From Oscillospiraceae bacterium (GTDB lineage Bacteria > Bacillota > Clostridia > Oscillospirales > Oscillospiraceae): a stretch of 32,000 nucleotides of DNA. Position 1 is the first letter of the stretch. Each line of letters begins with the position of its first letter. Position numbers and translations under genes: made by a program. The notes beneath the pieces are model-generated. The model did not search any database and was not told the origin of the DNA. It saw nothing but the letters and a program-made list of their open reading frames with translations. The stretch covers positions 1 through 32,000 of the forward strand of contig JAFXPO010000020.1 in assembly GCA_017527825.1 (NCBI GenBank), read 5' to 3'. Shown here one piece after another: positions 2,167-18,397 of this stretch.

Positions 2167-2211
2167 TGGAGCTGCTGGGCAGATTCGAACTGCCGACCTC
2201 ATCCTTACCAA
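2167..2211. repeat. att direct repeat, distal copy (displaced 3' 45 nt of tRNA-Thr)
   Basis: tggagctgctgggcagattcgaactgccgacctcatccttaccaa is identical to 18353-18397. The flanking bases differ on both sides. Confidence 0.9.
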
Positions 2212-2243
2212 TTAACCAAGAGCATTTTTTAGTTTATCAAAGT

Positions 2244-2314
2244 TTGCCATAGTTTGAGATTTGGAAACCAGCAATCAAGCGGGTTTGCAGCGTTTTACTT
2301 GCCGTAGTTTGAGA
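2244..2314. repeat. 16-bp direct repeat pair ttgcc(a/g)tagtttgaga (2244-2259 and 2299-2314)
   Basis: The two copies differ at one position and are spaced 55 bp apart. They lie in the non-coding arm between att and the integrase gene. Confidence 0.6.
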
Positions 2315-2353
2315 AAGCCGACGATAGCGTTTTTATAACTTTTTTAGCATGAT

Positions 2354-2377
2354 GCTCAATACTTTGCTCAATACTTC
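2354..2377. repeat. arm-type tandem 12-mer (gctcaatacttt gctcaatacttc), left-end copy
   Basis: The 22-bp core ctcaatactttgctcaatactt (2355-2376) recurs identically at 18232-18253, in the same orientation, just inside the other att copy. Confidence 0.75.
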
Positions 2378-2433
2378 TGAAAAGAGAGGTGCCGCCGACC
2401 TCATCTCTACAAGCGGCTCCTTTGACATAGACC

Positions 2434-2467
2434 GGCGGCGCAGGAAAGAACCCTGCGCCGCCTTTTT
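2434..2467 (+). terminator. GC-rich hairpin plus T-run at the 3' end of the integrase gene (plus-oriented, possibly bidirectional)
   Basis: ggcggcgcagg (2434-2444), 7-nt loop, cctgcgccgcc (2452-2462), then ttttt. The T-run is on the plus strand and overlaps the integrase stop codon on the minus strand. Confidence 0.5.
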
Positions 2468-3662
2468 ATTCGTTCTGGGCTTTTAGAGCATCCCGGACAA
2501 CCTGACCAGCCCGGCGGATACTATCCTCGTTCGCGTGGGCGTACATTCGGAGCGTGACCGCCGTATCGCTGTGGCCGAGCCGCTCCGAAACGCTGACCAC
2601 ATCGGCCCCGTTCGTGATGGCAAGGCTGGCCGAGGTATGCCGGAGCAGGTGTGGGTGGAAGTTTGGAATGCCGTACCGCTCCCCAAACTTTTTGAAATAG
2701 TGCGTCGGAGACTGCGGGTGCATCGGATCGGCGACCCCATCCACCGTGAACACATAGCGGGAGATGCACGTCGCCGCCTGTTCCTCCCGGAGCTGCCGGA
2801 GCAGTGCCAGCGCGTCTGGGCCGACGTCCACCGTGCGCCCCTTGCCATTCTTCGGAGAGGTCTCATAGACCCCAGCCGCCGGAGTATACTGCAGATTACG
2901 CCGGATCGTGATCACACCCGTGGCGAAATTGATATCCGACCATTGTAGGGCGCACAGCTCACCCTTTCGCGCCCCGGTATCGGCAGCGAGGTTTATATAC
3001 GTCCGCCACTTCAATGGCTCCTGCTCGACGCAGGAGAGGACGCGGCGGAGCTGATCGACCGTCAGCGCCTTCTCGGCCTCGGACTCCGCAACCTCGCCTT
3101 TACGCGGAGCTGGACGCTTCACCTTCAGCATGGGCGAGATTTTGATGCTCTCATCCATGAACGCCATATCAAAGAGGCCGTTCAGGATATTATAGAGCTT
3201 CACCGCCGAGGCGTGGGCTTTGCCGGTTTTTTGGTAGTCCAGTATGAGCTTTGAGATCATGGCCGGAGAGACCTCGACCAGCAGAGCGTCGCCGATCACC
3301 GGCAGGATATACCGATCAAGGAACAGCCGGTAGGAGTACCGGGAGTTCTCGCTGAGAGAGGCTTCCTTCGTCGGCATGAACACCCCGTCCGCGTATTGCC
3401 GGACGGTTTTCAATTTGGCAGCCTCGGCGGCAGCGGCGCGATCCTGCTCCTTCTGCTCGGCTCTGTTCAAGACCTCGCCCTTCCCGCACTGCAGCTCAAA
3501 GGCGGCGGCGACCTTTGCAAGCTCGCGCTCGGCGGCGCGTTTGCTCCACCCTTCAGGCCAGTACCAGCGCTTCGTATATGGCGTTTTGCCGTAACCGCGA
3601 GAAACGGAGATTTTGAAGAACCGCCGCCCGTCCTTCGTTTCCATGAGCTTTGTCGATGCCAT
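2466..3662 (-). CDS. tyrosine-type site-specific integrase (398 aa)
   Basis: Classical motifs are present: TGARKGELCALQWSDI, KNGKGRTV and HPHLLRHTSASLAITNGADVVSVSERLGHSDTAVTLRMYAH. GGGAGGG RBS. The gene is adjacent to an att repeat. Confidence 0.95.
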   Translation of the reverse strand: MASTKLMETKDGRRFFKISVSRGYGKTPYTKRWYWPEGWSKRAAERELAKVAAAFELQCGKGEVLNRAEQKEQDRAAAAEAAKLKTVRQYADGVFMPTKEASLSENSRYSYRLFLDRYILPVIGDALLVEVSPAMISKLILDYQKTGKAHASAVKLYNILNGLFDMAFMDESIKISPMLKVKRPAPRKGEVAESEAEKALTVDQLRRVLSCVEQEPLKWRTYINLAADTGARKGELCALQWSDINFATGVITIRRNLQYTPAAGVYETSPKNGKGRTVDVGPDALALLRQLREEQAATCISRYVFTVDGVADPMHPQSPTHYFKKFGERYGIPNFHPHLLRHTSASLAITNGADVVSVSERLGHSDTAVTLRMYAHANEDSIRRAGQVVRDALKAQNE

Positions 3663-16266: not shown

Positions 16267-16363
16267 ATACCCACCTACTTTGCCTTTATCCCGACCTGAT
16301 CCTCTGCTACCCTGAACGCGGACGCTCCTGCAGGGCTTCACATCATATTCAGGAGGAATCGGA

Positions 16364-18193
16364 ATGAAGAAATTAATCTCCCTGCTGCTGGCCATGACGC
16401 TGGCGGCGACCTGTGCGCTCCCTGCCGGAGCCGTGGACGATGAAGAAGCCGAGGCCAGCCCAGCCCCGGTCACGGTCACCACGGCGGAGGAACTGCTGGA
16501 GGCAATCGAAGCCGCCGAGGACGGCGATACGATCCTCATAGGAGCCACGATCTGCCCCGCTTTTGGTACAACCATCGGAAGTTCCGAAAAGCGGATAACT
16601 CTCGCAAGAGCCAATGAATTTCGCAACAGTATTATGTTTTCGTGCATCTTTTCAGCGGCGTTTGAAAATTTGACCTTTGACGGAAGCGGTTCTGATGTTC
16701 AATGCCTAACCATTTTTGCGGATGTACATTTTTACGGGGTTACCGTACAGAATACCAACACTTCCGGGATCGTGGTGGCCAGCGGAAACCCAGCATTTGA
16801 GGATTGCACATTCGAAAACAACTCCGCGTCTAAAGGCGGACACCTTCTGATAAAAAGCCGAGCGGGAGCGACAATCAGGAACTCTTCTTTTTTCAATGGC
16901 GCCTCGACAATGCAGGGAGGTGGTGCAATCTCGAATAGTGGTGACCTTAACATTACCGACTGCACTTTTATAGGAAATGCAACAACCGGCAACGGTGGAG
17001 CAATCAGCACATCTGGACGATGCAGGATAGAAGGCTGCACAATAATCGGAAACAGTGCATCCGCCGCAGGTGGGGGAATCCACTGCGTAGGCAGCCTCGA
17101 AATATCCGACAGCGTAATCTACGGAAATACGGCCCAGATGCGCGGCGCAGATATTGCTTCATCCGGCGAATTAGAACTATCCATATCCGGCGACGATTTA
17201 AGCGAGGTTTATCAAATTGAAGGAAGAATGCCGCTCGGCTTCTATTGTGATGCTTCTGATGGGCGCTTCAACGGCGAGACAAATGTGACTGAGAACAAAC
17301 CTCTCCCGATCAGCAAAGAAAGCGGAGTTTTGGATTTAATCTTTGTATTTACAGATGAGATTATTGTCCAAGATGATGAGCAACAGGTAGAGCCAGTGCA
17401 GGAGCCAGATCAACAGGAGCCAGAGGAACCAGCTCAACCTTCGGAGCCGGAAGCGCCCCAAGGGCAGGAGCAGCCGGAAGAACCGGCACAAGAACCCACA
17501 TCGGAGCCGGAGCCTGAACCAGAGCAACCGAGCGCCTCCGTCGCGCCGCCGAGTGTGGTACCGCCGAGCTACACACCCAGCCGAAGCAACACGCGCTCCT
17601 CCGAGGATAGCGTCACTTCGGAATCGGAATCGGAACCGGCACCCGCCCCGGCAGAACAGGCGCAGCCGGAGGCTGCAGCTCCCGCGCTCTCCTGCGGCGG
17701 AGCGGCGCTCGACACGTCGGGCCGTGCCTTCCTCGCTGGGTATGGTGATGGCGTGATCGGCGAGGATGATCCAGTCACCCGCGCCCAGATCGCCCAGATC
17801 ATCTACCGCCTCATGACCGATGAAAGCCGGGAGGCATTACAGACCACAGAGAACAGCTTCGAGGACGTACCCGCCGAGGCATGGTATAACCTCGCCGTCA
17901 GCACGATAGCTCGCGCCGGAATCGTGGTCGGTACCGGCGACGGCTTCCACCCGGAGGGCTACATCACGAGGGCGCAGCTCATCACAATCATGGCCCGGTT
18001 CATCGCCCCGGCAGAACAGGAAAGCAGCTACGCCGACGTGACCGGCCACTGGGCCGAGAGCTTCATCGGAACGGCAGAGGCCGCCGGATGGCTGACCGGC
18101 GGAGGCGACCTCCGTCCGAACGAGTACATTAGCCGCCGCGAGGTCGTGGAGTTCATCAATCACGTTTTCGATCTCTGCGAGGAAGCAGCGTAG
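16364..18193 (+). CDS. secreted cell-surface protein: signal peptide, right-handed beta-helix repeats, Pro/Glu-rich linker, C-terminal SLH domains (609 aa)
   Basis: Signal peptide MKKLISLLLAMTLAATCALPAGA. Repeated GGAI/GN motifs (QGGGAISNSGDLNITDCTFIGNATTGNGGAISTSGRCRIEGCTIIGNSASAAGGGIHC). Linker EPVQEPDQQEPEEPAQPSEPEAP.... SLH-like segments FLAGYGDG...TRAQIAQIIYRL, FEDVPAEAWY...TRAQLITIMARF and YADVTGHWAESFI. Confidence 0.85.
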   Translation: MKKLISLLLAMTLAATCALPAGAVDDEEAEASPAPVTVTTAEELLEAIEAAEDGDTILIGATICPAFGTTIGSSEKRITLARANEFRNSIMFSCIFSAAFENLTFDGSGSDVQCLTIFADVHFYGVTVQNTNTSGIVVASGNPAFEDCTFENNSASKGGHLLIKSRAGATIRNSSFFNGASTMQGGGAISNSGDLNITDCTFIGNATTGNGGAISTSGRCRIEGCTIIGNSASAAGGGIHCVGSLEISDSVIYGNTAQMRGADIASSGELELSISGDDLSEVYQIEGRMPLGFYCDASDGRFNGETNVTENKPLPISKESGVLDLIFVFTDEIIVQDDEQQVEPVQEPDQQEPEEPAQPSEPEAPQGQEQPEEPAQEPTSEPEPEPEQPSASVAPPSVVPPSYTPSRSNTRSSEDSVTSESESEPAPAPAEQAQPEAAAPALSCGGAALDTSGRAFLAGYGDGVIGEDDPVTRAQIAQIIYRLMTDESREALQTTENSFEDVPAEAWYNLAVSTIARAGIVVGTGDGFHPEGYITRAQLITIMARFIAPAEQESSYADVTGHWAESFIGTAEAAGWLTGGGDLRPNEYISRREVVEFINHVFDLCEEAA

Positions 18194-18230
18194 AGCGCCG
18201 GTACCGGCCAGCAGCTCAAAAAAAGGGCCA

Positions 18231-18254
18231 CCTCAATACTTTGCTCAATACTTT
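18231..18254. repeat. arm-type tandem 12-mer (cctcaatacttt gctcaatacttt), right-end copy
   Basis: The 22-bp core at 18232-18253 is identical to 2355-2376. Confidence 0.75.
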
Positions 18255-18304
18255 TGCAAAAATCAAAAATCAGGCAAAAATTGAAGTAGTCAAGAAAATG
18301 AGAA

Positions 18305-18345
18305 AAGCAAACAAAAAGAGCGGTGAAACTTCACGTTTCACCGCT
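18305..18345 (-). terminator. rho-independent terminator for the tRNA operon, encoded inside the element
   Basis: agcggtgaaac (18319-18329) pairs with gtttcaccgct (18335-18345). On the minus strand the hairpin is followed by ctttttgtttgc. It lies 8 nt downstream of the tRNA-Thr 3' end. Confidence 0.6.
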
Positions 18346-18352
18346 CAAATGT

Positions 18353-18397
18353 TGGAGCTGCTGGGCAGATTCGAACTGCCGACCTCATCCTTACCAA
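18353..18397. repeat. att direct repeat, tRNA-proximal copy (part of the intact tRNA-Thr gene)
   Basis: Identical to 2167-2211. It spans tRNA positions from the anticodon loop to the 3' CCA. Confidence 0.9.

Follow-up and report, generated by a model that had tools for sequence, protein, structure and literature searches.

A tRNA-Thr-integrated, phage-derived island with satellite-like gene content in an uncultured Oscillospiraceae bacterium

Islands and prophages integrated at the anticodon loop of tRNA genes (Islander-type, PMC4383910; classes in bioRxiv 10.1101/2020.11.02.365908) combine a tyrosine integrase with a regenerated tRNA gene and a displaced 3' fragment of it. The 16.2-kb segment at positions 2167–18397 of the stretch analyzed here (the window: 32,000 nucleotides of contig JAFXPO010000020.1 of an Oscillospiraceae bacterium) belongs to this well-known kind, being derived from a phage and integrated in a tRNA gene in the manner of the anticodon-loop class. 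We see no essential difference from Islander-type islands, in which tandem occupancy of one tRNA gene is likewise seen; here, an uncultured Oscillospiraceae bacterium of gut or rumen serves as host, and integration took place at a tRNA-Thr(GGU) gene that follows a tRNA-Asp gene. What the locus adds to the known kind is an attP validated in a close relative, a tandem neighbor, and small relatives in Oscillospiraceae that resemble phage-inducible chromosomal islands (PICI).

Like satellite P4 of phage P2, the element inserts in a tRNA gene through a tyrosine integrase, encodes a primase-helicase of large size, and brings late-gene regulators of its own, although there is no sequence relationship between the two, and the element lacks Sid-like or Psu-like genes. 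P4 shares its cos site and late promoters with P2; the element, comparably, shares a cis-acting block with candidate helper phages, the role of this block being only a candidate one. The PICI and the related Staphylococcus aureus pathogenicity islands (SaPI), as defined in SatelliteFinder (PMC10085698), resemble the element in the size of 16 kb, in the order of an integrase, a divergent repressor, an Xis-like gene, and a primase-replicase, and in having no capsid or lysis genes. By contrast, the att site of the element is also used by a true phage. Tape measure proteins were reported only recently in satellites, the EPIPs of Mycolicibacterium (preprint PMC12822802, which describes them as otherwise absent from satellites). 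These are unrelated elements with a serine integrase, terS, head-tail adaptors, and capsid-related genes, whereas the window element has a tyrosine integrase and, of those genes, just one for a neck-type protein. Finally, cryptic and defective prophages are alike in their partial virion gene set, toxin-antitoxin and surface-protein cargo, and evidence of internal deletions, but here the recombination, regulation, and replication modules are intact, and a close relative has joined ends.

The boundaries of the element are set by the following features. Handles with the prefix L denote loci fetched for comparison.

2167–2211, minus strand: attL core, the displaced 3' 45 nt (positions 32–76) of tRNA-Thr(GGU) without the 5' half (exact repeat; no tRNA found here by ARAGORN and Rfam)
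2212–2465, minus strand: P' arm with 16-nt repeats, arm 11-mers, a core-like 17-mer, and a post-integrase hairpin at 2434–2462 (repeat and hairpin scans; the same layout downstream of the integrase in L164, L012, and L013)
2466–3662, minus strand: tyrosine integrase, 398 aa (PF00589, E = 4.5e-28; catalytic residues in the translation)
18194–18352, minus strand: P arm with arm 11-mers and the element-supplied terminator of the tRNA operon at 18318–18346 (terminator and repeats also follow the core in L164)
18353–18428, minus strand: intact tRNA-Thr(GGU), the 3' 45 nt of which (18353–18397) are the attR core (exact repeat, ARAGORN, Rfam)

The 45-mer TGGAGCTGCTGGGCAGATTCGAACTGCCGACCTCATCCTTACCAA has exactly two exact copies in the window, at 2167–2211 and 18353–18397. 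No third copy with up to three mismatches was found in the window, and 100 shuffles yielded 0 matches. As the first-pass annotation of this DNA had stated, the surroundings of the two copies differ on both sides (...ctttttcg, 45-mer, ttaacc at the left copy and ...caaatgt, 45-mer, ggatgc at the right one). The same annotation had placed the right copy within an intact tRNA-Thr gene, and this is borne out by ARAGORN, which calls tRNA-Thr(GGT) at 18353–18428 on the minus strand and, before it in the direction of transcription, tRNA-Asp(GTC) at 18432–18508, and by Rfam, which scores the two genes at 73.5 and 70.4 bits, respectively, and finds nothing else in the whole window. The tRNA-Thr gene, spelled out as GCTGCTG TA GCTC AGTAGGTA GAGC G CATCC TTGGTAA GGATG AGGTC GGCAG TTCGAAT CTGCC CAGCAGC T CCA, shows that the 45-mer comprises positions 32–76. 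It takes in the whole anticodon loop and continues through the 3' anticodon stem, variable loop, T arm, and 3' acceptor strand to the discriminator base and the CCA, which is encoded. The identity thus does end exactly at the 5' edge of the anticodon loop. An intact tRNA at one end paired with a direct repeat (45/45 nt) of its 3' part at the opposite end is the arrangement of an island integrated in a tRNA gene, and an identity block that starts in the anticodon loop and reaches the tRNA 3' end is that of the anticodon-loop sublocation; the crossover itself would lie within this loop. The integrase just inside the distal repeat is canonical, with the complete catalytic set R-K-H-R-H-Y visible in TGARKGE, SPKNGKGR, HLLRHT, LGHSD, and RMYAH. 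Overall, we regard the proposed mechanism of integration and the boundaries of the element as very probable.

Two copies of the 45-mer define an attP in which position 18352 is joined to 2212 across a single 45-mer. This predicted junction is present in the closest relative of the element, L164 (JGI metagenome contig Ga0256405_10007666, 16,005 bp), whose integrase is 92% identical and whose DNA is 87–92% identical to the window element. In L164, the start of the primase gene is followed by a small open reading frame (ORF), an Xis-like gene, the integrase, arm repeats, and one 45-mer identical to that of the window; beyond it come the terminator of the right end of the window element, arm repeats, the SLH gene, and the remaining genes, reversed, up to the neck gene. 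In blastn, window positions 17464–18397 align to L164rc 8814–9742, and positions 2167–3662 to L164rc 9698–11194, both alignments overlapping on the single 45-mer. The gene order of this unit-length contig is a circular permutation of that of the window element, without structural genes. As k-mers in JGI assemblies are longer than 45, the junction should rest on real reads.

The two elements differ in three regions. The repressor region (window 3662–4572) is not alignable at the DNA level, which means that the immunity region differs. L164 has a 1.46-kb insertion relative to window positions 15495–15536, between the ORFs of 152 and 76 aa. It also has a 2.7-kb deletion of the genes for the tail assembly chaperone (TAC) and the tape measure protein (TMP), corresponding to window positions 8915–11594, with remnants at both ends, namely 25 codons from the start of the chaperone gene and 26 from the end of the tape measure gene. 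These remnants point to an internal deletion in the L164 lineage, with the ends of the element still joined. Therefore, the tail genes are ancestral in this lineage, yet not needed for excision.

The integrase relatives that we gathered from IMG/VR and metagenome contigs, at 48–92% identity, all adjoin tRNA-Thr sequence. At least seven of them (L166, L167, L169, L171, L172, L177, and L180; integrases 73–77% identical) belong to complete elements of 5.9–8.0 kb, each lying between an intact tRNA-Thr(GGT) gene and an exact 45-nt copy that starts at position 32, and in each the T-arm variant of the 45-nt copy agrees with its own tRNA. A clade with integrases of 53% identity targets tRNA-Thr(CGU) and has other arm repeats, but its block again starts from position 32. 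The earlier notion of a block from the anticodon loop to CCA holds, hence, for the small relatives and for this clade as well. L013, with a 61% identical integrase, encodes terL and a head protein and has the order integrase, arm repeats, core, terminator, arm repeats; it is a true phage genome with attP. A test for terminal overlap of L013 found none, so that it counts as attP-bearing but not as circular. The 7.5-kb element L172 (integrase 74% identical) carries an integrase, a repressor, xis, a primase, a helicase, and a terS-like gene, which, judged from gene order, would be a textbook PICI layout, and the small relatives look like a family of PICI-like satellites in Clostridia. To our knowledge, satellites have not been characterized in the Oscillospiraceae-type bacteria that carry this integrase clade. 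The sources of the seven small relatives are human-gut and other metagenomes. L042, L165, L186, and L187 have their integrase gene in convergent orientation to the intact tRNA-Thr gene rather than at the far end, the att region being inverted relative to the integrase gene.

Both arms of the attachment site carry the 11-mer CTCAATACTT(T/C). It has four sites in the window, while ∼0.21 are expected by chance, and two lie on each side of the core: 2355–2365 and 2367–2377, 144–166 bp inward of the left repeat, and 18232–18242 and 18244–18254, 99–121 bp inward of the right one. These are the positions where arm-type sites would sit in attP, and repeats flanking the core on both sides are, at the level of sequence, the arrangement of a lambda-type integrase. 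Lineage-specific arm repeats occupy equivalent places in L012, L013, L131, and L164. The 11-mers are putative integrase-binding sites. The tRNA operon, with a promoter-like site upstream of tRNA-Asp, is closed by a strong terminator provided by the element (18346–18318, minus strand), directly after the CCA of tRNA-Thr. In the integrase-proximal arm, 16-nt direct repeats TTGCCRTAGTTTGAGA at 2244–2259 and 2299–2314, 55 bp apart, may be Xis sites or accessory sites. L164 and L174 contain related motifs, CAAACTACGGCAA. In the stretch 2386–2410, located past the stop codon of the integrase gene and ahead of the arm repeats, a small hairpin holds a core-like 17-mer GCCGACCTCATCTCTAC at 2394–2410 that shares 15 of its 17 positions with the tRNA/att core; a decoy core site, a terminator, and a remnant of an earlier att are all conceivable roles for it. 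L164 has a better core-like copy, GTAAGGATGAGGTC, in the same place.

Taken with the relatives, this yields exact, cross-validated att sites, comprising the core, the arm repeats, and the element-supplied terminator, for one tRNA-Thr-targeting integrase clade that spans uncultured gut and rumen Oscillospiraceae. These may be used to delimit islands in metagenome-assembled genomes (MAGs), whose contigs are often broken at the tRNA-Thr locus, and possibly as an integration tool.

The remaining features of the element are listed below.

3662–4309, minus strand: cI-like HTH_3 repressor, divergent from the rightward genes (PF01381, E = 1.3e-9)
4430–4969, plus strand: three small early genes at 4430–4606, 4584–4817 (Cox-like/HTH_17, Xis candidate), and 4814–4969 (homologs in the same position in most relatives)
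4974–7655, plus strand: primase-helicase of the replication module, 893 aa, with a CHC2 zinc finger, DUF927, and Cch HTH (PF01807; PF06048, E = 1.2e-53; PF18662)
7989–8642, plus strand: Neck1/tail-completion-like protein, 217 aa (phrog_27, E = 8.9e-20)
8710–8815, plus strand: conserved non-coding block common with phages (87% identity to a stretch of L046–L048)
8841–9182, plus strand: TAC (PF10109, E = 1e-6; phrog_3140, E = 8.6e-20)
9139–11655, plus strand: TMP, 838 aa (PF10145, E = 3.6e-45)
11778–12946, plus strand: sigma-factor-like regulator at 11778–12515 (PF04542/PF04545, phrog_351) and late-activator-like protein at 12527–12946 (PF07638, phrog_36)
13239–14158, minus strand: leftward cassette with a 61-aa ORF, a YafQ/ParE toxin at 13458–13730 (PF15738, E = 1.6e-36), a 72-aa ORF, and an HTH_26 regulator at 13928–14158 (PF13443, E = 4.7e-11)
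14541–16266, plus strand: small cargo genes at 14541–14816 (phrog_1956), 14828–14971, 15067–15525, 15586–15816, and 15934–16266 (DUF6431) (Pfam/PHROGs)
16364–18193, plus strand: SLH-domain surface protein, 609 aa, with a PMP-type repeat, cargo adjoining attR (PF00395, E = 5e-19)

No terminase, portal, capsid, sheath, tube, baseplate, holin, or lysin gene was found among the ORFs of the element with Pfam and PHROGs, although several small ORFs remained without annotation in these searches. The element is thus not a complete temperate phage, while the related phages L046 and L065 possess such genes. The Xis candidate at 4584–4817 has weak matches (phrog_575, E = 1e-4; HTH_17, E = 0.0035) and a position that is kept in relatives. 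The Neck1-like protein is 60% identical to the product of the neck gene of the myovirus contig L065 and 96% identical to that of L164; a search of PDB sequences with it gave no match. Another frame in the same region, the 277-aa ORF at 7883–8716, has no family matches and is probably spurious, as only the 217-aa frame has homologs.

Several parts of the element have counterparts in phages. Relatives of the primase at 56–75% identity are found in phage contigs of 24–56 kb. One of the phages, L046, has the order primase, endonuclease, activator, ParB-methyltransferase, terS, terL, portal, capsid. Residues 12–333 of the TMP are 94% identical to the TMP of L065, a myovirus with the order capsid, decoration, head closure, Neck1, structural protein, small unannotated ORF, sheath, tube, chaperone, tape measure. 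Four genes, including those for the sheath and the tube, thus separate Neck1 from the chaperone in L065, compared with ∼200 bp in the window, which indicates that the sheath-tube block is missing here. Homologs of the activator lie upstream of the late operon in the phages L046–L048 and L251 but downstream of the tail genes in the window. For this reason, we rejected the reading of the tail genes as a remnant left by simple deletion and collinear with those of related phages.

The non-coding block (∼105 nt), which lies between the neck gene and the chaperone, has its counterparts in L046 at 15999–16113 and in L244–L253, and its 20-nt core GCGGGGCGAGGAAGGCGCGA is found in 10 IMG/VR phage contigs. 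In all eight of the eight phage contigs for which the downstream flank was fetched, the block is immediately upstream of terS/terL or of the ParB-methyltransferase gene preceding them, even where terS is just 43% identical. The genes that follow it in the window element are those for the chaperone and the tape measure protein, and in L164, those for the two regulators. Folding of the block gave no signal of RNA structure (z = -0.33). We take the block as a candidate for a late promoter/operator or a cos site.

Our best reading takes the element for a derivative of a temperate myovirus that is satellite-like and competent for excision; an inert remnant is the main rival. That 2167–18397 is a site-specific integrative element that derives from a temperate phage, is satellite-like, and depends on a helper seems to us reasonably probable, and the chances of a satellite-type life style as such are even or slightly better. 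A lambda-type tyrosine integrase would recombine attP, with its 3' 45 nt of tRNA-Thr(GGU), with the tRNA gene of the host, so that the tRNA gene would be regenerated at the right end together with the terminator of the element, and the old 45 nt displaced to the left end. The element keeps the integrase, the divergent repressor, the Xis-like gene, and the primase-helicase, which correspond to the left half of a PICI-type satellite, and has lost all capsid, terminase, sheath, tube, and lysis genes, retaining the neck gene, TAC, TMP, the two late regulators, and the non-coding block. It is predicted to excise, circularize, and replicate by itself, with particles supplied by a helper myovirus; the window copy would then be active as well as helper-dependent.

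Several observations weigh against this. Of the components of the PICI model (PMC10085698), the integrase, the regulator, and the primase-replicase are present at 2466–3662, 3662–4309, and 4974–7655, respectively, but we detected neither the small terminase nor a capsid-size gene of the model among the ORFs of the element with Pfam and PHROGs, and the model forbids tail and holin genes, whereas TAC and TMP are present here. For these reasons, we do not file the element as a PICI. The relatives with a 74% identical integrase do have a terS-like gene in the PICI position, in contrast to the window element. No helper phage was identified. The attP derived at first pass from the exact ends is seen in L164, but not for the exact copy: its attP junction had 0 matches in IMG/VR, the end of the 45-mer joined to the left end of the element had 0 matches in JGI metagenomes, and none of the 11 contigs with the exact SLH protein had the attP layout. 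A look-up of the exact integrase, birA, int2 (the recombinase gene of the neighboring island), and SLH proteins yielded nothing but copies that were integrated or on contigs breaking off at the repeat, and no element-free site was found for the exact window copy. The junction in L164 would look alike if it came from a tandem dimer; the contig, read up to its last 2.6 kb, may be circular. Lastly, the adjacency of Neck1 and TAC and the internal TAC-TMP deletion in L164 are both as compatible with a decaying prophage as with a satellite.

The latter points are shared by the main rival, a myovirus-type prophage at tRNA-Thr that has been mostly deleted and is immobile, its perfect repeats merely dating a recent integration. 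The element has just three virion genes left, its gene order is unlike that of related phages, where the activator stands before the late operon, and the 11 contigs with the exact SLH protein are integrated layouts of two kinds plus one short contig ending inside the 45-mer. Still, compared with their homologs, the genes for the integrase, the Xis-like protein, the repressor, and the primase have their full length, a close relative has its ends joined on a unit-length contig, most carriers of the integrase clade are small, complete, PICI-like elements and not random remnants, and the tRNA-Thr site is polymorphic between samples. We therefore consider an inert remnant rather unlikely, and the satellite-like, excision-competent derivative remains our preferred reading.

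Much less likely is a stronger version of that reading, in which the element is a new type of satellite of Oscillospiraceae myoviruses with its own TMP and TAC behind a late-operon/cos block of the helper type. The TMP and TAC and the sigma-like and activator-like regulators might then tap late expression of the helper, or the element might be packaged (possibly as a ∼32-kb dimer) with altered tail assembly. The tail genes in a 16-kb satellite-like element and a block found upstream of phage packaging operons are, as yet unproven, leads for the biology of satellites and helpers.

The region to the left of the element bears on another alternative, namely that the mobile unit is larger than 16.2 kb.

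290–2166, plus strand: end of the neighboring island B, outside the element, with an HTH_17 gene, a divergent tyrosine recombinase, and an AT-rich hairpin flank (PF12728, PF14659, PF00589)

Island B comprises an HTH_17 (excisionase-type) gene at 290–496 and a 497-aa recombinase (int2) at 525–2018, ending 148 bp before the 45-mer. Its order of an xis-like gene, a recombinase, a hairpin, and a tRNA 3' end mirrors that of the L126 island next to tRNA-Thr. Box II of int2 is QGLR instead of HxLR. The 16.2-kb segment could form a composite with int2 and the HTH_17 gene, the 45-mer at 2167 being an internal relic. Indeed, two convergent recombinase genes flank the 45-mer at 2167–2211, a convergent second integrase beyond a partial tRNA copy is also found in L012, L171, L172, L173, L176, and the L014 group, and the far end of island B is outside the window, every public contig with island B stopping ∼88 bp left of the window start. 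However, L164 joins 18352 to 2212 without any island-B sequence, relatives share the 45-nt boundary but differ in their distal neighbors, none of the other fetched loci holds a relative of int2, and the GC content of island B is 48–51%, compared with ∼50–62% across the length of the element (60–65% in the host flank). A larger mobile unit is thus very unlikely. We infer, instead, a tandem array of islands in one tRNA-Thr gene, with the 16.2-kb element as the most recent arrival, as it adjoins the intact tRNA, and its distal neighbor is another recombinase island.

This also modifies the empty site expected in the first-pass annotation, in which tRNA-Thr would be followed by the flank at 2118–2166. 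Since 290–2166 is a second island, this flank is the end of island B and not the chromosome, and the site restored by excision of the element would be tRNA-Thr joined to island B and so remain occupied. The flank had also been taken for a terminator; the terminator scan gave no call there, the AT-rich hairpin being below the GC criterion.

The nearest genome to the host is a MAG with a 94% identical BirA. In the orthologous loci L126, L127, L128, L131, and L135, the order tRNA-Asp/tRNA-Thr/birA is kept, while the DNA past the CCA end is different in all. In particular, the tRNA-Thr(GGU) gene is followed by an island with another integrase and a MobL relaxase in L126 (2917–9481), and by three DNA methyltransferase genes in L127 (2701–5626), whereas L131 (1–6791) has a ∼7-kb element with a 78% identical integrase and DnaD/DnaC-type loaders. 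L007, from the same species (sample ERZ28019130), is identical from birA to the tRNA and then, from the CCA end, has a third unrelated flank (1–62) with its own terminator ACACCGCGTACCCAAAGGGCACACGGTGT, the contig ending 62 bp past CCA. This flank had 0 matches in GTDB genomes and no match in any fetched locus; it may represent native sequence or one more island. With the divergence of L007 and of the orthologous loci setting in precisely at the CCA end, the tRNA-Thr site is a polymorphic hotspot, filled with tandem unrelated islands. A clean empty attB was not recovered, L007, L126, L127, L128, L131, and L135 all having other foreign-looking DNA. Several MAG contigs break at the tRNA-Asp/tRNA-Thr pair.

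The DUF927/Cch type of primase-helicase occurs in non-phage islands too and is presumably linked to staphylococcal cassette chromosome mec (SCCmec)-type islands. This, the MobL relaxase in the island at tRNA-Thr of the nearest species, and the competence-mobilized satellites reported in PMC13376191 would fit an integrative mobilizable or plasmid-like element with spread through conjugation or transformation and with phage genes as passengers, but such an element is highly improbable, as Pfam scans found no relaxase, oriT-associated gene, or coupling-protein domain in the element, and its regulators, its non-coding block, and the relatives of its primase are all phage-borne.

Among the cargo, a PADLOC search with ten proteins gave no match. 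The 72-aa ORF that overlaps the YafQ/ParE toxin gene is, from its position, the probable antitoxin. Transcription of the toxin cassette at 13239–14158 runs opposite to the rest of the element, and the cassette shows 97–99% conservation in L164.

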